IMG/VR virus record: IMGVR_UViG_3300045988_003943
Span: 1-5,868 of that record
Source of the DNA: a virus
Strand: one strand, 5' to 3'
Length of the DNA stretch: 5,868 bases
Of the stretch, positions 1-5,868 are shown in pieces (within the stretch, counting starts at the first letter, position 1; every line of letters starts with the position of its first letter). Under the pieces are notes generated by a model. It made no database searches. It saw nothing but the letters and a program-made list of their open reading frames with translations, and was not told where the DNA came from. Made by a program: the position numbers and the translations under genes.

Positions 1-55
1 AAGCCGTGCTCTTCGAAAGATTTTGTAAAAGCGCTCTTGCCAAAGCCTGTGACCG
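1..55. repeat. Terminal redundancy: 1-55 is identical to 5814-5868 (circular genome, unit length 5,813 nt)
   Basis: Exact 55/55 match between the two window ends. The VP1 reading frame is continuous across the implied junction. Confidence 0.95.
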
Positions 56-1250
56 ACATTGCCGCTACGTTGCCCTGTGGGCTTGTTTCCGTTGTGCCAC
101 TTGTCTGGATTACCTGGTTCATGTTAATCATGATTCGGTCGCCGCCCAGATATTCAGGAATCTGCACCGTTTTGTCGCTGATGCGTGTCCGGAACAAACT
201 GTAAATTTGTTCCCTGTACCTACTGCCGCCTCTGGCCAGTTCTTCAAAGTATTTCTGTACCTGAAATGCCTGTCGTAACTGGTTTATGGTTGCACCGGTT
301 GCTTGGCTTAAATCCGCCCCCATCCATGCACTGCCGTTGTTTAAGCCTCCGCTGTAAAATGTTCTAAATGGAGATGTTTCACCTTCACCCAGGACGTCTG
401 TTTTACCGATTTCTACCTGTTGTCCCGTCGTTGGCGTTCCTGTTGTAAAATAGGTTGCTGTTCCGAATGGCGCTATTGGATTTCGGTATGTCCATGGCGT
501 TTTAAGTTCTTTTTCTTTGTATCCGTAGATAGGCGCATTGCCCAGCATTGGAATTGTTACGCTTTCTGCCGAACGCTGAGGTGAGGGCAAAGTACTGCTG
601 AAATAGTCGTGGAAGCGGTTCACCGGTAGAGGTCTGCCGCCTGTGTATGCTTCCTGCAGAATGGTTTCTAGCGTTGCGTCTTTGCCGCTGTCCTTATAGT
701 CTACATCTGCGTCTTTGTCCGTGTTGATTGCCGGGTTGTCCACGTTCTGGTCCCGGAACCACTCGTTCCAAATCTTGACGTATGCGCGGATAGGAAGCGC
801 GTTGATATCCAGTTCACCGGTTTCGCCAATGATTTTCGTTGGAACGCCCATATAGTCGAGAATGCTGTTTTCCTGTGGGAATTTGTTTTCTGCTGTGCCG
901 CCTTTGATTTTCAGCTGTGGAATAGTGTATTCGGTCTGCTGTACCCATGGATCATCTGTGACTTCGCCCATAAATTCCTTCCAGTGTTCCCACAAAATAC
1001 GGTTAGGACAGAAGAAGTAATAGTAATCCAAGTAACAGTTATCCATTACCGGGAAGATAGGCGTGCTCATGCGCACCAGTCCGACGTTGTCGATTGAAAA
1101 TGTGTCACCGGGAAGCACTTCATCGACGTAGAAAGGAATAAGCTGGCCTGCATCGAATGTCAGCTTGATGTCTTGGTCACGTTTGAAACGACTTCGCGTG
1201 ATTTCCAAGTTCGGCACTTGGTTGAAATGTGCTTCGTTGTTTCGTTTCAT
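1..1250 (-). CDS. VP1: Major capsid protein VP1, N-terminal part (ATG at 1250 reading down to position 1; the ORF continues in frame across the circular junction into 5813->5345)
   Basis: Reverse-complement translation from ATG 1250-1248 gives MKRNNEAHFNQVPNLEITRSRFKRDQDIKLTFDAGQLIPFYVDEVLPGDTFSIDNVGLVRMSTPIFPVMDNCYLDYYYFFCPNRILWEHWKEFMGE..., the classic N-terminus of gokushovirus-type Microviridae VP1. The frame stays open to position 1 and is in phase with the 5345..5813 segment: codon 2,1,5813 is TTT, and unit length 5813 is congruent to 2 mod 3. SD AAGGAG lies ~10 nt upstream inside the end of VP3, and the VP3 stop overlaps the VP1 start as ATGA. Confidence 0.9.
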   Translation of the reverse strand, partial: MKRNNEAHFNQVPNLEITRSRFKRDQDIKLTFDAGQLIPFYVDEVLPGDTFSIDNVGLVRMSTPIFPVMDNCYLDYYYFFCPNRILWEHWKEFMGEVTDDPWVQQTEYTIPQLKIKGGTAENKFPQENSILDYMGVPTKIIGETGELDINALPIRAYVKIWNEWFRDQNVDNPAINTDKDADVDYKDSGKDATLETILQEAYTGGRPLPVNRFHDYFSSTLPSPQRSAESVTIPMLGNAPIYGYKEKELKTPWTYRNPIAPFGTATYFTTGTPTTGQQVEIGKTDVLGEGETSPFRTFYSGGLNNGSAWMGADLSQATGATINQLRQAFQVQKYFEELARGGSRYREQIYSLFRTRISDKTVQIPEYLGGDRIMINMNQVIQTSGTTETSPQGNVAAMSVTGFGKSAFTKSFEEHG

Positions 1251-1738
1251 TCTTTCTTCTCTCCTTTCATTTCGTCAACCACTGGTTTTTCTTCAACCAC
1301 AGGTTTTTGATTCATTCCCAGTGCTTCCATCCAGTCTGCCGTGCCAAATCCTGCAATGAACTTGTCAACGTCATTATCGAATTTTTGCTTAATTTCTCGC
1401 GGCAGTTTATCCCACGTCTGTTCTGCCTGAATCATCAGATTCTGTGCTTCAGCTAGCGTGCTCGGCATGTTCGTGAAATCCTGCGGTTCTGCATCGCTCA
1501 GCTGTGCGCCCAGCTTTTGTACAATGCTCGGGTCAAAAGCTGCGCGGTTGATGATGTTTTCAATTTTCGTTTCTTCGAGATAGCTCTGTATCTCTGCGTC
1601 TCTGTCTATTTCTTCATCTTGCACAAGGCTTTTGTTTCCCTTGTTATCGTATGTCCAACGAAAAGTAAGGCGGGTTTTCCTGCCCGCCTCCGTCTCTTTT
1701 CGTTCTTTCTCGTTATGATTTGCTCGAGTAAAGAACAT
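1247..1738 (-). CDS. VP3: VP3 internal scaffolding protein (163 aa)
   Basis: The C-terminal half DFTNMPSTLAEAQNLMIQAEQTWDKLPREIKQKFDNDVDKFIAGF fits the gokushovirus VP3 signature (..F..LP..IR..F.ND...F..F), which I recall from memory. There is a strong SD: AAGGAGGAAAAAATG. Stop TGA overlaps the VP1 ATG as ATGA at 1250-1247. Confidence 0.7.
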   Translation of the reverse strand: MFFTRANHNEKERKETEAGRKTRLTFRWTYDNKGNKSLVQDEEIDRDAEIQSYLEETKIENIINRAAFDPSIVQKLGAQLSDAEPQDFTNMPSTLAEAQNLMIQAEQTWDKLPREIKQKFDNDVDKFIAGFGTADWMEALGMNQKPVVEEKPVVDEMKGEKKE

Positions 1739-1749
1739 TTTTTCCTCCT

Positions 1750-2013
1750 TTAGATTACTTCCAAGTCTACAGGCGGGTTTGCTTTGCTTTTGCCGTCCTG
1801 CAGTTTGTGCTTGTCGTTCCAGTATTCGCCGCTTTCATCGTCGAACGTTGCGACTTTGAATAGCGTGTAGTCTTTGGCGTTCTTGCGCAGCTGGTTTTCG
1901 TCGTTGCACGCGTCTTTGAATGCCCGGACTGCCGTGCCGTCGTTTACGCTCTCGAACCCGCCCATGAACTGCTCTGCGATGTTGTCGCGGACGCTGTAAA
2001 TGTTGTGAATCAC
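1750..2013 (-). CDS. Hypothetical protein, 87 aa (GTG start), compositionally atypical with high GC3
   Basis: GTG at 2013 is preceded by SD GAGGAGG 9 nt upstream. There is strong codon periodicity with about 75% G/C at third positions (AAC, GAC, TTC, GGC, ATC), versus A/T-rich third positions in VP4, VP1 and M15. Stop TAA is at 1752-1750, immediately before the VP3 SD. The product is MIHNIYSVRDNIAEQFMGGFESVNDGTAVRAFKDACNDENQLRKNAKDYTLFKVATFDDESGEYWNDKHKLQDGKSKANPPVDLEVI. Confidence 0.6.
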   Translation of the reverse strand: MIHNIYSVRDNIAEQFMGGFESVNDGTAVRAFKDACNDENQLRKNAKDYTLFKVATFDDESGEYWNDKHKLQDGKSKANPPVDLEVI

Positions 2014-2112
2014 AGTCTGATGCCTCCTCGCATAGGTTTTGCCGAAAGGTTGATTGCTTTCGTTTTGTTTGCGGTCTTGTTGTAGATTTTTGCATCCTTC
2101 CGTCGCTTGACC

Positions 2113-2340
2113 TTAGTACGCTTCTTCATCGTTTGCCCCTCTTCTCATCAGTTCTATTTCAATACTATTTGCAAAGTCTTTCATTTGCCAGATTTCTTCA
2201 ATCAGCTTTTTTGCGTCTTCTTTTTTTTCGACTTTGCGGAGCATTTTGTATTCGTTGTCTATTTCCTTGTATTTTCGTTTTAGCAGTTCTTCTAGCGCCG
2301 CTTTGGGGGTGTCTCTTGCATTCCATGTCGTTCTTGTCAT
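2113..2340 (-). CDS. Hypothetical protein, 75 aa, highly charged and predicted alpha-helical
   Basis: ATG at 2340 has an excellent SD: AAAAGGAGTAAACCATG. The product MTRTTWNARDTPKAALEELLKRKYKEIDNEYKMLRKVEKKEDAKKLIEEIWQMKDFANSIEIELMRRGANDEEAY has no TM segment and no motif I can assign. It may be a VP5-like accessory protein. Confidence 0.6.
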   Translation of the reverse strand: MTRTTWNARDTPKAALEELLKRKYKEIDNEYKMLRKVEKKEDAKKLIEEIWQMKDFANSIEIELMRRGANDEEAY

Positions 2341-2343
2341 GGT

Positions 2344-2466
2344 TTACTCCTTTTCTTTTTCGTTTGCGTAATCGCGAAGTGCATGGTAGATTTCGTCCAG
2401 CTTTTCAAGAATGTTCATCATGATTTTGATAGCTTCCTTGACGTCCTTGATGGAGATCAGTGCCAT
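2344..2466 (-). CDS. Hypothetical small protein, 40 aa (MALISIKDVKEAIKIMMNILEKLDEIYHALRDYANEKEKE), not in the supplied ORF track
   Basis: ATG at 2466-2464 lies 2 nt after the M15 stop and is preceded by SD AAAGGGGGTG. Stop TAA is at 2346-2344, 3 nt before the next ORF, and its 3' end carries that ORF's SD (GAAAAGGAGTAA). Tight operon packing supports it being translated, but its short length keeps it uncertain. Confidence 0.45.
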   Translation of the reverse strand: MALISIKDVKEAIKIMMNILEKLDEIYHALRDYANEKEKE

Positions 2467-2468
2467 TT

Positions 2469-2858
2469 TCACACCCCCTTTCTGTATTTATTTTCTCGCA
2501 CGTCTATGTGCACAAAATTACTGTATCTGATTACTCCGCCGCCTAATTCGCCGAGCACCTTGCTCGCATATTCTGCCACCTCCTTGCTATTGTGTTTTTT
2601 TACCACAATGTCGGCCGCCATGCCTTTTACATGATAGCTGTTTTTTGCACCGCCTACTTTTGCGTTCCATGTTGGTGTTCTGTATCCTGAATTGATGATT
2701 ACTGGTTCGTTAAAGTGTTCTCTGATTCTTTCTAAGACTGCGAGTAGTTCAGGTGCCCACAAAAATTCTTTTGTTCCGTCTTTGCATCTAAACTCTTCTG
2801 CTTTGAAGTGCTGCGTTAATCGGTCGTTGTTTGTTTGGTTTAGGATTGCTGTACTCAT
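2469..2858 (-). CDS. Peptidase M15_3 family (zinc D-Ala-D-Ala carboxypeptidase-like) cell-wall hydrolase, putative lysis enzyme (129 aa from ATG 2858; the ORF track starts 3 codons earlier at GTG 2867)
   Basis: The sequence ...FLWAPELLAVLERIREHFNEPVIINSGYRTPTWNAKVGGAKNSYHVKGMAADIVV...GGGVIRYSNFVHIDVR carries the M15 signature: SGYR, then N..VGG, then S.H..G.A.D (H and D zinc ligands), then FVH.D (third His). ATG at 2858 is preceded by SD AGAGGTGG at 6-nt spacing. There is no signal peptide and no TM segment. Confidence 0.8.
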   Translation of the reverse strand: MSTAILNQTNNDRLTQHFKAEEFRCKDGTKEFLWAPELLAVLERIREHFNEPVIINSGYRTPTWNAKVGGAKNSYHVKGMAADIVVKKHNSKEVAEYASKVLGELGGGVIRYSNFVHIDVRENKYRKGV

Positions 2859-2879
2859 TTTGACCACCTCTTGTTTGTA

Positions 2880-2907
2880 TTTTATATTTTTCTGTTCGCT
2901 TTGTCAA
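2880..2907 (-). promoter_or_regulatory. Candidate sigma70-type promoter on the minus strand: -35 TTGACA (2907-2902), 16-bp spacer, -10 TATAAA (2885-2880), pointing into the M15 gene
   Basis: Perfect -35 hexamer and a 5/6 -10 hexamer at canonical spacing in the AT-rich region. The predicted TSS at about 2872 is just upstream of the M15 SD. It lies downstream, in the transcription direction, of the terminator at 3353-3321. Confidence 0.4.
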
Positions 2908-2957
2908 GGTTTTTTGTAAAAAATTTTGGCAAAGCAAACAGATGCCCGCGGCAGGCG

Positions 2958-2995
2958 TTTTTAACATTTTCCACAGACTTTTCAACATTTCCACA
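2958..2995. repeat. Iteron-like direct repeat copy A TTTTTAACATTTTCCACA (2958-2975) plus partial copy TTCAACATTTCCACA (2981-2995)
   Basis: Motif TTTTTAACA-(A)-TTTT(TT)-CCACA recurs at 3062-3082. The CCACA/TTCAAC/CAACAA submotifs recur through 2958-3140. Confidence 0.7.
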
Positions 2996-3061
2996 TTGTT
3001 AAACTTTAGCATAACAGAGTGCTGCCGTATTGGTGTATATTCGTTTCAACAATTCAACAAC

Positions 3062-3082
3062 TTTTTAACAATTTTTTCCACA
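3062..3082. repeat. Iteron-like direct repeat copy B TTTTTAACAATTTTTTCCACA
   Basis: Near-identical to copy A at 2958-2975, differing by 1-nt and 2-nt insertions. It is preceded by the tandem CAACAATTCAACAAC. Confidence 0.7.
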
Positions 3083-3180
3083 AGTTTTTTACTAAAAAAA
3101 ACGCATATCTTCGTTGTAAATTATTGCTTTTCAACTTTTAAACTGTCTCTACTACTACTCCTACAACAAGTATATAAATA

Positions 3181-3248
3181 ACACGCATGTGTGCGCGTGC
3201 GCGCGCGTGCGCGTTTCGTGCGCGTGTGCGCATGTGCGCACATGCGTG
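3181..3248. repeat. GC island of two perfect alternating purine-pyrimidine tracts (34 nt at 3181-3214 and 32 nt at 3217-3248), predicted Z-DNA-forming, with 10-bp terminal inverted repeats
   Basis: acacgcatgtgtgcgcgtgcgcgcgcgtgcgcgt / tt / cgtgcgcgtgtgcgcatgtgcgcacatgcgtg. RY alternation is strict within each tract, broken only by TT. CACGCATGTG (3182-3191) is the reverse complement of CACATGCGTG (3239-3248). GC is about 65% against about 25% in the flanks. It contains TGCGCA x2, CATG x3 and GCGCGC. Confidence 0.9.
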
Positions 3249-3254
3249 AAATAA

Positions 3255-3281
3255 GGCAGCCCCTAAGTTAGGGGCGCTGCC
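3255..3281. repeat. GC-rich hairpin (~11 bp stem with a 2-nt bulge, 3-nt loop)
   Basis: GGCAG-CCCCTA-agt-TAGGGG-cg-CTGCC. Outer arms 3255-3259/3277-3281 and inner arms 3260-3265/3269-3274 are complementary. CTAGGGG at 3283-3289 is an alternative partner for CCCCTAA. Confidence 0.7.
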
Positions 3282-3288
3282 GCTAGGG

Positions 3289-3312
3289 GTGTGTCGTGAG
3301 ACACACACTTTT
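3289..3312. repeat. Hairpin GTGTGTC-gtga-GACACAC followed by TTTT
   Basis: 7-bp stem (3289-3295/3300-3306), 4-nt loop, then acTTTT at 3307-3312. This is terminator-like on the + strand only, and there are no + strand genes. Confidence 0.6.
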
Positions 3313-3320
3313 GATTTAAT

Positions 3321-3354
3321 AAAAAACTCCATACCCTAAAGGCATGGAGTTTTA
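3321..3354 (-). terminator. Rho-independent-type terminator hairpin (bidirectional) downstream of VP4
   Basis: Stem AAAACTCCAT (3323-3332) pairs with ATGGAGTTTT (3344-3353), with an 11-nt loop containing an extra CC/GG pair. The minus-strand RNA reads AAAACUCCAU-loop-AUGGAGUUUUUUAUUAAAUC, a stem followed by a U6 run. It lies 60 nt after the VP4 stop. The GC core is only 6 bp, so strength is moderate. Confidence 0.5.
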
Positions 3355-3364
3355 AATCTTATTT

Positions 3365-3412
3365 TGTCATCAAGCCAAGTACCCGCCTTGTCAGGTACTT
3401 GGCTTGATGACA
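3365..3412. repeat. Perfect 19-bp inverted repeat (hairpin with 10-nt loop) abutting the VP4 stop codon
   Basis: tGTCATCAAGCCAAGTACC (3365-3383), then spacer cgccttgtca, then GGTACTTGGCTTGATGACa (3394-3412). The right arm ends 2 nt before the VP4 TAA at 3414-3416. It would be a very stable stem-loop in virion ssDNA and in mRNA. Confidence 0.9.
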
Positions 3413-3413
3413 C

Positions 3414-4430
3414 TTACATAGTTCCGGCCATTTTTCTAAACTTGTGAATTTTACGTTCCTGCGCTGATAAATAGCTTTCAAGCTTAATATCTGTTTGTTC
3501 CATCTTGTTTTTGGTTGAATCCATGGATTTTTGTTGCCTTTGTCGTTTGATTTCCCATAAACGTTCGGGGTCTTCTGCTTCCATCTGTTTTTCAAAGTAA
3601 CGTGGTATTGCCGCTCTTTTACCGTTGCTTAGCTGAATGTAACCTTTTTCCCAGATCTCTTCTTTGTGTTGTAGATAGTATTCTTCACCTAGACCCGGCT
3701 TTAAACTCATCATTGCGAATGGTGGCCTTAATCCTCTTTTGATGTGCTCCATGGTTTCATCACCAATTTTTTTTGTTACATAGCCTGCCGTGTAGCTGTA
3801 TGCTTTGTTTGTCGCTGGTTCGCTCATGTTGTGGATACCATACGGCCAGCATTTTGTTATGCGTGTGTCCGTGTAGTATCCTTCTTTGCTGAGTAGTCTG
3901 TACGGCTCTAGCTTTTCTGGATTGTAATTGAACAAAATCAGATGATAGTGCGGTCTCCCGGTGTGTTCTCCGTATTCACCAGCACAGAAATAGCGTATTC
4001 CCGGCCCTGCGGCCTTTCTGAGACGCTTTAGAAACTTCTGAATGTCCTCATACCATAACGTCTGATTCTCCTTTAAATCGCCTTTCTGCCGCTTGTAGAG
4101 TGCTCCGCGTATTACTTCGCCTGTTTCGTGGTTAACGCCCGGTATGTTTTTATCATCATATGTTAATGTGACAAACCATACTGAGTGCGGTTTACTTGTC
4201 TTTGCTTCCATTTCAATTCTGCAAGCCCAGTCTTCTCTTTTGCGGATTCTGCACCCGATGCATTGCCCGCATGGAATTAGCATAACGTCTTTTCTGTAAA
4301 TTAAATCTTCATAGGTTAAATCAGGATTTTTTGCCCTTTCAACGGCAAAGCGCCGGAGCGTGTAAACACGTCCCGACGCTTCGCGGTCGTCTGGCACATA
4401 AAACCTGATAAGAGGTTTATAACATGCCAT
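3414..4430 (-). CDS. VP4: VP4 replication initiation protein (rolling-circle HUH endonuclease, 338 aa)
   Basis: Motif I is WFVTLTYDD (FuTLTu). Motif II is the HUH motif PHYHLILF. Motif III is YSYTAGYVTKKIG (catalytic Tyr followed by K). There is an N-terminal Cys cluster PCGQCIGCRIRKREDWACR. The start ATG overlaps the VP2 stop as TAATG, and the stop is TAA at 3416-3414. Confidence 0.9.
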   Translation of the reverse strand: MACYKPLIRFYVPDDREASGRVYTLRRFAVERAKNPDLTYEDLIYRKDVMLIPCGQCIGCRIRKREDWACRIEMEAKTSKPHSVWFVTLTYDDKNIPGVNHETGEVIRGALYKRQKGDLKENQTLWYEDIQKFLKRLRKAAGPGIRYFCAGEYGEHTGRPHYHLILFNYNPEKLEPYRLLSKEGYYTDTRITKCWPYGIHNMSEPATNKAYSYTAGYVTKKIGDETMEHIKRGLRPPFAMMSLKPGLGEEYYLQHKEEIWEKGYIQLSNGKRAAIPRYFEKQMEAEDPERLWEIKRQRQQKSMDSTKNKMEQTDIKLESYLSAQERKIHKFRKMAGTM

Positions 4431-5332
4431 TATCTTAAATAATCACCCGGCTTTCTTTGCTGTCCATAGCTTCCCGTTTTGTCTGTTGCTTTGATTGCGC
4501 GGTCTGTTGAGCCTGCAACTCTCTTTTGTGCTTTGCCTGCGTCGTAACTTGGTTCTGCTACCTTGTCCGTTACAACTTCTACGTTTTTTTTCAGCTCTTG
4601 CCAGCTCTTGCCGCTGTTTGCTCCTTGCTGGAAATAACTGCTTACTCCCTGCGCAAGGTTGATACTGTCGCTGAAACTGCCGTAACTGTTGGAACTGAAT
4701 GCCGGGCTTCCCAATGCGCTGATGCTTGCCGCGCTTGTGCTTCCTAGTCCTACGCTTGCACCGCCTACGCTTCCAGCACTGCCTCCGCCCATTGCCGCGC
4801 CTCCGTTGAGTGCCGCCAAAATTGGGTTGATTCCTGCGGCTCTCATGTCTGCAACGGCTCTTTGGTATGCGGTACTGCTCATGTGCTCTTGCCACTCTCG
4901 ATTAAGTGCGGCTTCTGCAGAGTTGTAAGCCATGGCTTCACGCATTAGGTCAGCGTTCATTCGTCCTTGCTTGTTCATCATCATACTGTTAAGCAGGCCT
5001 TGGAATCCACTTCCTGCCATGTTGTAGATTCCTTGTGCGCTCATGCTTCCCAGATTTCTGAGCCATCCGCTAAGTTCTGTGTTTCGGTTTGTGCTGTCGT
5101 TCGTTCCTCCTGAACTTTCGCTGTGGCTGTTTCCATAGCTCCAGTTAGAACTACTGCCTCCTCCTGCTGTCCAGCCTTGGTTTTGGCTGAAATTGAACTT
5201 GTTACTTGCGTCGAACTGTTGCTGATTTTGACTTAATCCTTTGAACTGGTTGTACAGATTTCCGAATGTTCCGATTAAGTTTCCGGCTGTGCCCATTATT
5301 TTTAATGCTGTTCCCAGTCCTCCTAGTGCCAT
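4430..5332 (-). CDS. VP2: VP2 minor capsid / DNA pilot protein (300 aa)
   Basis: It sits immediately downstream of VP1, as in gokushoviruses. The VP1 stop TAA is followed by a perfect SD: TAAGGAGGTATTTAAATG. The core segment NSAEAALNREWQEHMSSTAYQRAVADMRAAGINPILAALNGG matches the conserved motif of Microviridae VP2 (ERMS.TAYQRA..DM..AG.NP), which I recall from memory. The flanks are Gly/Ser/Asn/Ala-rich low-complexity regions. Confidence 0.8.
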   Translation of the reverse strand: MALGGLGTALKIMGTAGNLIGTFGNLYNQFKGLSQNQQQFDASNKFNFSQNQGWTAGGGSSSNWSYGNSHSESSGGTNDSTNRNTELSGWLRNLGSMSAQGIYNMAGSGFQGLLNSMMMNKQGRMNADLMREAMAYNSAEAALNREWQEHMSSTAYQRAVADMRAAGINPILAALNGGAAMGGGSAGSVGGASVGLGSTSAASISALGSPAFSSNSYGSFSDSINLAQGVSSYFQQGANSGKSWQELKKNVEVVTDKVAEPSYDAGKAQKRVAGSTDRAIKATDKTGSYGQQRKPGDYLR

Positions 5333-5344
5333 TTAAATACCTCC

Positions 5345-5868
5345 TTAGTGATGGTCGATTAAGCCGGGAACGGAATACATTGGCATTGGCCTTACGGTTG
5401 TGTTTTTTACAAGGAAGTCTGCGATAAACTGTGGTTCGTTTACCTTGTCTTCAACGGCCAGAGTTCGCGCGATTTCTGCACTTCCTTCTTTCATCCACTC
5501 TTGACTGAGTGCCGGTGTTTTGGTGTAGTTGTCACCATAGTGCCAACTGTCCAGCGTTCCGGTCGCATTGGATCGGAACGCACCACAGATGCGGTTTGGC
5601 TTCATGCGATAATCCGCCCACGCCTCTTGGTAGCCAAATGCTTCGTTGTCGGTTTCCGTGCCCTGTGCATAGAGTTCTTTTTTCAGTACTGCTTGCTCTC
5701 CCAGATTTGCGAAAACAGGGAAATAATAGTCCAGCTTGTTTTTTCTGCTGAACATGCGTTCCAAACCCTGCTGGTATGTGTGGTCATGGCGTACACAGCA
5801 TACGCCAATAACAAAGCCGTGCTCTTCGAAAGATTTTGTAAAAGCGCTCTTGCCAAAGCCTGTGACCG
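5345..5868 (-). CDS. VP1: Major capsid protein VP1, C-terminal part (stop TAA at 5347-5345); bases 5814-5868 duplicate 1-55
   Basis: The frame is open from the window end down to TAA at 5345-5347. Translation reads ...FEEHGFVIGVCCVRHDHTYQQGLERMFSRKNKLDYYFPVFANLGEQ...GYQEAWADYRMKPNRICGAFRSN...RPMPMYSVPGLIDHH*, a typical VP1 C-terminus. It joins in frame to the 1..1250 segment, giving 572 aa in total. The ORF track start at 5764 is only an internal TTG. Confidence 0.9.
   Translation of the reverse strand, partial: VTGFGKSAFTKSFEEHGFVIGVCCVRHDHTYQQGLERMFSRKNKLDYYFPVFANLGEQAVLKKELYAQGTETDNEAFGYQEAWADYRMKPNRICGAFRSNATGTLDSWHYGDNYTKTPALSQEWMKEGSAEIARTLAVEDKVNEPQFIADFLVKNTTVRPMPMYSVPGLIDHH
5814..5868. 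repeat. Second copy of the terminal redundancy (duplicate of 1-55)
   Basis: Identical to 1-55. Confidence 0.95.

Follow-up and report, generated by a model that had tools for sequence, protein, structure and literature searches.

The viral genome held in IMG/VR record IMGVR_UViG_3300045988_003943, of which the whole stretch from position 1 to 5,868 was analysed (5,868 nucleotides, referred to here as the window), contains at positions 3181 to 3248 a GC-rich island in which purines and pyrimidines (RY) alternate almost without interruption, and the question raised by this locus is what maintains such a sequence. The window is a gokushovirus (Microviridae) genome. Its ends carry an exact terminal repeat of 55 nt (1-55 equals 5814-5868) and hence it represents a circle of 5813 nt, the junction of which is spanned by VP1; all of its genes lie on the minus strand, and its closest matches in the databases, at ~86% identity, come from uncultured gokushoviruses of pig and human faeces. 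The RY element is located within the single large intergenic region (2868-3413), which extends from the stop codon of VP4, the Rep protein, to the start of a peptidase gene. We tentatively interpret it, at somewhat less than an even chance, as a conserved cis-acting structural element that would adopt Z-DNA in the supercoiled replicative form and a hairpin in single-stranded DNA.

Run detection places two perfectly alternating tracts exactly where a sequence-only reading of the window had put them: tract 1 (3181-3214, 34 nt), which reads (YG)n on the + strand and (CR)n on the coding (-) strand, and tract 2 (3217-3248, 32 nt). The two runs are parted by TT at 3215-3216, which belongs to a loop or phase break at 3214-3216 reading TTT on the + strand and AAA on the coding strand (centre CACG-AAA-CGCG). 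Elsewhere in the genome the longest such run is 11 nt, and the maximum over 500 shuffled versions was 20, with a mean longest run of 12.6, in agreement with the proposal that the alternation is far beyond chance. Unbroken alternation rich in CG and CA/TG over at least ~8-12 bp is characteristic of Z-DNA-forming sequences, and the 34 + 32 nt found here satisfy this description; the GC content of the island is 0.69, and outside the spacer only GC, CG, TG, GT, CA, AC and AT steps occur (15 CG, 12 TG and 5 CA in the tracts). As a whole the element is an imperfect palindrome (3182-3248) with 32-nt arms (3182-3213 and 3217-3248) that are 78% complementary around a 3-nt loop.

Several details of the sequence-only reading require adjustment. 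The 10-bp inverted repeat said to bound the island is real and perfect (3182-3191 and 3239-3248), but it forms the base of the 32-nt imperfect repeat. The palindromic sites TGCGCA (twice, 3227 and 3235) and CATG (three times, 3186, 3231 and 3241) are present as described, but GCGCGC occurs as two overlapping copies (3199 and 3201) rather than once, and the reported density of restriction sites is a by-product of CG-rich alternation. Flanks of about 25% GC are found on the left (0.26 for 3081-3180) but not on the right, where GC is 0.47-0.60 and four hairpins are present. The 64-aa open reading frame (ORF) that crosses the element (3138-3332, minus strand) starts inside a terminator-like hairpin, has no conserved frame and finds no support as a gene, which upholds the view that it is non-coding; a protein-coding reading was rejected both for this ORF and for a 79-aa ORF in the adjacent AT-rich module, as neither frame is conserved. 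Membership of a known RNA family was likewise rejected, since Rfam gave no match at gathering score and returned only sub-threshold TG-repeat miRNA hairpins (mir-297, 46 bits against a threshold of 90), a low-complexity effect.

Related phages carry the element at the same place, confirming the recurrence that had been anticipated. All four of the GenBank relatives examined possess an alternating GC tract at the equivalent position, with differing sequences, and in a set of 127 related genomes 91 contain the paired element, while 3 or 4 more have a version that is unsplit or cut by a contig end (~95 in total). About 31 show background alternation only, and the element is either intact or wholly absent, with no decayed copies in this set. 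The 68 distinct variants have two near-equal arms, ranging from 16/17 nt via 20/21 nt (the commonest) to 32/34 nt in the window clade, and their lengths are correlated (r=0.76). The coding-strand spacer is short and A-rich, being AA in 30 of the 68 variants, with an overall A:T of 109:19. Contingency-like length variation, which had been envisaged, was not observed, as the arms of six close relatives of the window are all 32-33/34 nt; the exception is L003 (48/33 nt), which has a one-sided, (CA)n-like unpaired extension of 15 nt. Another variant, L004, consists of one in-phase tract of 45 nt. A microsatellite or contingency locus was rejected because the tract is a mixed CG/CA/TG/TA series rather than a pure repeat unit and, L003 excepted, its length is constant among close relatives.

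Scanning 2.9 M IMG/VR contigs with the pattern (CR)8-AA-(RC)8 gave 51 matches, all of them 4.2-6.4 kb in length. Seven of these loci were already in our set and 38 of the 44 newly fetched ones match microvirus VP1 and VP4, the other six matching weakly or to only one of these proteins. The same pattern was uninformative on specificity in a metagenome scan, where 2 of 120 among the matches listed were microviruses and most were apparently (CA)n microsatellites. A BLAST comparison of the element alone with the phage collection gave no match, as the low-complexity filter masks such a sequence. The cultured gokushoviruses phiMH2K, Chp2 and SpV4 do not carry the element, and no description of it was found in the literature on Microviridae and gokushoviruses, coverage of which was incomplete. 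The suggestion that the island is a relic of captured host DNA, or a contaminant, was discarded: more than 90 independent phage genomes from several datasets carry it, no bacterial or prophage copy was found, and a scan of 185,579 species genomes for a linked, conserved 22-mer yielded no prophage.

The manner in which the element changes is informative. Each element with 150 nt of flank was compared with its nearest neighbour along the 62 edges of a minimum spanning tree, and in these comparisons the arms show 4.7% transitions and 0.58% transversions, against 6.3% and 4.2%, respectively, at flanking G/C positions, which include the stems of other hairpins. Transversions in the arms are ~7-fold depleted relative to the flanks (Fisher p=8e-12). 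Because transitions occur at close to the flanking rate and transversions are depleted, the sequence drifts while changes that break the alternation are removed, and at the level of comparative analysis this demonstrates purifying selection on the alternation. A neighbouring conserved hairpin accepts all kinds of substitution in the same genomes, whereas the RY element never breaks alternation. Furthermore, alternation persists beyond pairing, in the unpaired extension of L003 and in the unsplit tract of L004.

A second clade provides a separate view of this constraint. Most of the new IMG/VR matches are gokushovirus-like genomes of 4.2-5.0 kb, whose VP1 proteins are 35-40% identical to that of the window, and here the element lies in frame at the end of VP4, among its last codons and 22 nt short of the stop codon. 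The peptide encoded at the element varies (THARARNAHARA, TRARARNAHAHA, THARAQSAHARA, THARARSAHARA and others), mostly through transitions that preserve the alternation; since the peptide changes while the alternation stays, the constraint is on the DNA and not on the protein. Two members of the clade that were found through their protein rather than the DNA pattern also have the element, with changes such as Arg to Gln and their sole transversion in the spacer. A VP4 with 43% identity is without it.

Pairing between the arms is also conserved. Opposed bases are in Watson-Crick opposition at 69% of positions in register, 59-61% when the arms are slid by two and ~50% further out, and in a 13-sequence alignment 80% of cells pair in register compared with 66-75% when slid by 2. 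Six pairs in register, versus one slid, have changed on both sides, none of 500 shuffles attains the covariation score, and compensatory double changes number 6-7 where ~2 are expected. These comparisons show that arm-to-arm pairing is maintained as well, more weakly than the alternation. Some 25% of the opposed arm bases are A.C on the coding strand, equivalent to G.T on the + strand. One mismatch is itself conserved: 12 of the 13 aligned sequences have it, and it is mostly C.A when read on the coding strand and mostly a G.T wobble when read on the + strand. The picture established by these sequence comparisons is that of a two-armed quasi-palindrome in which strict alternation is evidently kept by selection and drift proceeds by transitions.

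Which structures might such a sequence adopt? In a simplified one- or two-run statistical B-Z model of a 5813-bp circle, based on published energies (PMC3024258), conversion costs 17.9 kcal/mol for tract 1 and 17.2 kcal/mol for tract 2. The predicted probability of Z-DNA is 0.13 at a superhelical density (sigma) of -0.030, with a mean of 2.3 bp in the Z form, and reaches 0.94 (21.5 bp) at -0.035 and 1.0 at -0.040, -0.050 and -0.060 (27.3, 54.4 and 61.8 bp, respectively). No other genomic site competes in the model, the best being 14-16 bp, and the 43-nt (L016) and 36-nt (L163) versions are predicted to switch at about equal density. The claim that the island is Z-DNA-prone is supported by the model, which predicts a transition at sigma ~-0.03 to -0.035 and finds no second such site in the genome. 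Extrusion of a cruciform by the window element would cost ~55 kcal/mol, which is not paid until sigma ~-0.07. A cruciform was accordingly rejected as the double-stranded form, given that the arms are 78% complementary and extrusion lies well beyond the predicted onset of Z-DNA, and Z-DNA is the expected alternative duplex structure.

The element resembles the engineered (CG)n and (CA)n inserts in pBR322 derivatives that were used to calibrate B-Z energetics in the SIBZ work (PMC3024258). It is of the same sequence class and in a similar range of lengths (26-32 bp there; 34+32, 20+21 or 17+17 here), and its predicted B-Z onset is likewise at moderate negative superhelicity. Unlike the inserts, however, it is natural, conserved across divergent phages, under purifying selection for alternation and split by an out-of-phase, A-rich loop, and its Z-DNA is a prediction.

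Single strands of the element are predicted to fold back, as had been suggested, although the two strands do so differently. Since each A.C on the coding strand is a G.T on the + strand, the + strand folds into one uninterrupted 32-bp hairpin (-35.6 kcal/mol, z=-4.4, with none of 200 shuffles as good), whereas the coding strand gives a branched fold (-26.7 kcal/mol, z=-2.0). The antisense strand is the more stable of the two in all 68 variants.

The control region to which the element belongs also contains the main promoter, an AT-rich module with iterons and the hairpins that follow Rep. According to the interpretation that we favour, in which both Z-DNA and a hairpin are formed, the element would flip from B-DNA to left-handed Z-DNA in the negatively supercoiled replicative form once sigma passes ~-0.03 to -0.035, and of the ~33 superhelical turns in a circle of 5.8 kb it would take up some 6-12; by doing so it could serve, next to the origin/promoter module, as a torsional switch or buffer and as an obstacle to read-through. 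When the genome is single-stranded, both arms would form a very stable hairpin among the other intergenic hairpins, one that single-stranded DNA-binding protein (SSB) is probably unable to melt. Candidates for the process that is tuned in this way are nicking by Rep, promoter activity or priming. The alternation is kept without a pairing partner, through in-phase loops, inside a coding region and over deep divergence, which argues that the property Z-DNA needs is the one most strongly selected, whereas arms of equal length, an A-rich loop of odd length and covariation show that fold-back pairing matters too. That gokushoviruses carry a naturally selected Z-DNA switch, which sets or senses the torsion of the 4-6 kb circle beside the origin/promoter module, is a further proposition that we regard as doubtful.

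A number of observations weigh against the favoured interpretation. The Z-DNA in question is predicted, from a model that simplifies SIBZ to two runs and takes its parameters from the literature. In living cells the effective superhelicity is close to the threshold that the model gives, so that formation may need transcription-driven supercoiling. A pure Z-DNA device has no need of a central phase break, near-equal arms or covariation, and these features point to a hairpin. The nearest-neighbour comparisons are phylogenetically non-independent and alignment of low-complexity sequence could hide changes as gaps; in addition, a wobble-tolerant (G.T or A.C) hairpin would by itself admit mainly transitions, and pairing may therefore contribute part of the bias towards transitions. 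Finally, about a quarter of the relatives, together with the three cultured gokushoviruses, are without the element, which must therefore be dispensable.

The main rival explanation, possible though not in our view probable, is that the element acts as the hairpin of a complementary-strand origin, a single-strand initiation signal of the G4 type that is SSB-resistant on the packaged strand and at which host primase or primosome starts conversion of single-stranded to double-stranded DNA. On this hypothesis the alternation would derive from an ancestral (CG)n-like sequence and would have lasted because no intermediates other than those of the wobble type, which lead to transitions, are tolerated. 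The near-equal arms, A-rich triloop, covariation and excess of compensatory doubles are all in accord with such an origin, as is the situation of the element amid other conserved hairpins and adjoining DnaA-box-like repeats. Moreover, in 13 of the 68 variants the centre contains the exact canonical GCGNAGC/GCGNNAGC mini-hairpin core, which in every case is confined to the coding strand. This type of mini-hairpin, which is SSB-resistant, marks the primase start site of phages G4, St-1 and alpha3 (PMC13037366), and the general presumption about conserved hairpins in microvirus intergenic regions is that they serve as primosome sites (PMC9865509). The element shares with hairpin I, the complementary-strand origin of G4, St-1 and alpha3, its occurrence in Microviridae, a non-coding GC-rich stem-loop, a purine-rich loop of 3-4 nt on the coding, and presumably viral, strand and membership of a hairpin cluster. 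Hairpin I is, however, primase-dependent, with a GCGAAAGC / GCGTTAGC mini-hairpin, and belongs to phages of a different subfamily, whereas the stems here, in Gokushovirinae, are 16-32 bp, strictly alternating and ~25% mismatched on the coding strand; the window loop, CG-AAA-CG, is non-canonical and use of primase is putative.

Other features are harder to reconcile with a G4-type origin. The window centre, CACGAAACGCG, is a non-canonical mini-hairpin that does not conform to GCGNAGC/GCGNNAGC, and on the coding strand, presumed to be the packaged one, the A.C mismatches leave a branched fold with a z-score of only -2.0. An origin hairpin does not explain why the neighbouring hairpin takes all kinds of substitution when the RY element never breaks alternation, leaves the unpaired alternating extension of L003 without an explanation and is at odds with the absence of the element from many relatives. 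The single-strand origins (sso) of rolling-circle plasmids and of integrative and conjugative elements are strand-specific non-coding hairpins that start second-strand synthesis. The primosome assembly site of phiX174 (the n'/PriA hairpin) is similarly strand-specific and non-coding and starts the second strand (PMC9865509). Our element is comparable to both in being a hairpin in a non-coding region of a rolling-circle replicon, but it has no sequence similarity to them, they lack RY alternation, and their function is demonstrated where that of the element is putative.

It is unlikely that the element is a non-functional mutational by-product, that is, a compound (CG/CA)n microsatellite or self-extending palindrome kept in existence by slippage and fold-back synthesis. 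Such an origin would account for the microsatellite-like (CA)n extension of the L003 arm, for the variation in arm length between clades and for the perfect symmetry of the extra 10 bp at the base of the stem in the window clade, which could have arisen by fold-back copying. Slippage, however, would purge transitions and transversions alike, whereas transversions alone are depleted 7-fold; length is constant in close relatives, decayed copies are lacking, another clade retains the element within coding sequence and, among viral contigs, it is confined to genomes of microvirus size.

Quite improbable, in our judgement, is a function of the window + strand, which is antisense to the genes, as a structured RNA or in single-stranded form; on this strand every arm mismatch becomes a G.U or G.T wobble and a perfect 32-bp hairpin results. 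The predicted stability of this hairpin, which no shuffle equalled, the stronger folding of the antisense strand in every variant and the preference for a G.T wobble at the position mismatched in 12 of 13 sequences are all as would be expected from such a function. Nevertheless, the asymmetry between the strands follows from composition. The + strand of the window has an AT skew of -0.3 to -0.45, meaning that the coding strand is strongly A>T, and stem mismatches are accordingly A.C on the coding strand; the arm A:T ratio of 2.4:1 is within the range implied by this genome-wide skew and an unrelated hairpin downstream of VP4 is equally biased, so that no special explanation is needed. Special selection for CA over TG on the coding strand was rejected on the basis of the same ratio. 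The skew may reflect codon bias, mutation bias or a different packaged strand; base composition of the coding strand is A 35 / C 28 / T 19 / G 18 in phiMH2K (L203), and in Chp2 (L204) and SpV4 (L205) G exceeds C and T is equal to or slightly above A. There is in addition no convincing + strand promoter upstream of the element and no U-tract after it, and its Rfam matches are sub-threshold and low in complexity. A further argument against a function of this kind is that the Microviridae cycle is not expected to include a single-stranded stage of the minus strand.

It seems highly improbable that the element is an intrinsic terminator or insulator, placed last in a series of terminators that separates the VP4 transcription unit from the promoter that follows. 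A consensus scan does flag the coding-sense stem with its tail TATTTATATA as terminator-like, T-rich tails follow the element in several relatives, and the element lies between terminators and a strong TTGACA-17-TAAAAT promoter (2907-2879). However, in the 4.2-5.0 kb clade the element precedes the VP4 stop codon by 22 nt and has no T run, many gut relatives have none directly after the element, A.C mismatches weaken the coding-sense RNA hairpin, and alternation is not required by a terminator.

A site-specific recombination target, whether a site of the dif/XerCD kind or the end point of a segment that can invert, is scarcely credible: inversion of the adjacent AT-rich module in 29 of 123 genomes, with a breakpoint abutting the element in L003, and the known integration of some gokushoviruses through a phage dif motif (PMC7062461) might suggest it, but the best dif match at the element is 15/28 (genome-wide best 18/28), below the 16.8 averaged by shuffled genomes (maximum 20), the 22-mer search returned 26 genome hits that include no prophages and one free microvirus contig, the window genome has no recombinase gene, and the element is present whether the module is inverted or not. 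Like the phage dif motif of enterobacterial gokushoviruses, which is acted on by XerC/XerD (PMC7062461), the element is a short conserved non-coding gokushovirus motif, and the XerC arm GGTGCGCATAA holds a GTGCGCAT stretch that is also found in the RY tract; unlike that motif it has neither the 11-6-11 architecture nor a XerD arm and no associated prophages. The faint resemblance to dif that the sequence-only reading had itself found unconvincing does not rise above shuffled controls, and a dif/Xer site was rejected. The neutral-repeat, antisense-RNA, terminator and dif readings are each contradicted by at least one of the tests above.

The remainder of the intergenic region is also rich in signals. 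A spacer of pure A/T (3171-3180), matched by a similar A/T stretch in most relatives, separates the element from the conserved 22-mer CTTGTTGTAGGAGTAGTAGTAG (3149-3170, minus strand), which heads the AT-rich module and follows the pattern CTTGTTGTAGNNGTAGTAGTAG found in >120 IMG/VR microvirus contigs; in most contigs bearing CTTGTTGTAGNNGTAGTAGTAG the distance from the 22-mer to the RY element is 10-25 nt. The module itself (2950-3148, minus strand) is non-coding, with no conserved reading frame, and contains an iteron array in one orientation. TGTKGAAA in the sense of the module corresponds to TTTCMACA on the + strand, of which there are five copies, all on that strand (2968-2975, 2980-2987, 2988-2995, 3044-3051 and 3075-3082; 0.7 expected), and two of the five fit the relaxed DnaA-box pattern TTWTNCACA. 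In 114 modules TGTKGAAA occurs on average 6.8 times at fixed positions, against 0.4 times in the rest of the genome. We found no literature linking Microviridae and DnaA boxes.

Part of the module (2953-3021, 69 bp) is 90-94% identical to the otherwise dissimilar gokushoviruses MZ821031 and KX513877, which suggests either that lineages exchange the module or that it is subject to a constraint of unusual strength. In 123 genomes the ~220-bp AT-rich module (2950-3170) has the orientation of the genes in 94 and is inverted in 29, the inverted set including the close relative L003 (module 1270-1466), with breakpoints at TATATAAC... and ...GTTAAATA. The position and polarity of the RY element are unchanged whichever way the module points, and a causal tie between inversion of the module and the RY tract is unproven; a role of the tract as a mutation or recombination hotspot is likewise conjectural. 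In one clade the whole intergenic region is found between VP2 and VP4 rather than after VP4.

On the other side of the element, between it and VP4, there are four further hairpins. A GC-rich hairpin (3255-3281, minus strand; inverted repeat I8), terminator-like in the consensus scan, is directly upstream of the element in the coding sense and is followed towards VP4 by the hairpin GTGTGTC-GTGA-GACACAC (3289-3306), identified in the same scan, and by a terminator-like hairpin with a T run downstream of VP4 (3323-3353, minus strand; inverted repeat I3). Directly after the VP4 stop codon is a perfect 19-bp hairpin (3365-3412, minus strand; inverted repeat I2, 100% complementary), of which 75 homologues with covarying stems were found in relatives. 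Its loop, CTGACAAGG in the window, keeps a CTATCAAG-like motif in relatives while the stem covaries freely, and the reverse complement of this motif, CTTGATAG, may resemble the nick-site core of the phiX174 origin. In the second clade two hairpins follow the element, at 1600-1655 in L163 and in the corresponding position in most of the loci of 4.2-5.0 kb among L159-L202. The first is a covarying hairpin. Beyond it is a long hairpin, the right arm of which has tandem GTGGAYAACC boxes, where CGTGGATAA matches 8/9 of the DnaA box; the left arm holds TTACCCAC, giving an A.C mismatch on the coding strand, whereas the stem of L163 has a perfect TTATCCAC / GTGGATAA pair. This long hairpin may be comparable to the DnaA-box hairpins of DnaA-dependent priming, which it recalls.

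Outside the intergenic region Pfam identifies, all on the minus strand of the window, the Microviridae F capsid protein, Rep (VP4, 3414-4430), a scaffold VP3 of the Chlamydia-phage type, ORF5/VP5 and a peptidase M15 (2469-2867). The near-consensus sigma-70-type promoter TTGACA-17-TAAAAT (2879-2907, minus strand; 11/12 matches), recognised by consensus scan and in the sequence, is directly upstream of the peptidase M15 gene and its ribosome-binding site, AGAGGTGG. A very basic 39-aa ORF (2010-2129, minus strand; MKKRTKVKRRKDAKIYNKTANKTKAINLSAKPMRGGIRL), absent from the ORF list, looks like the small DNA-binding protein of J/VP8 type that gokushoviruses carry.

Few gut phages are as abundant as the microviruses and, to our knowledge, their cis-acting replication signals are essentially unknown outside phiX174 and G4. 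The RY element is a widespread and easily recognised non-coding landmark in many gokushovirus genomes. That transitions are free in it and transversions forbidden, even within a coding region, is an unusual mode of evolution and points to selection on the conformation of the DNA rather than on its sequence. If gokushoviruses do carry a selected Z-DNA switch, the element would clearly exemplify purifying selection, in a virus of bacteria, on the potential to form Z-DNA; with the Z-DNA reading correct, it would also be a natural, genetically tractable system in which to study the role of Z-DNA in bacteria. If the element is instead a priming hairpin, it would locate the long-sought complementary-strand origin of gokushoviruses. 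On either reading, the element and the iteron module mark where the origin region should be sought when these genomes are annotated or engineered.

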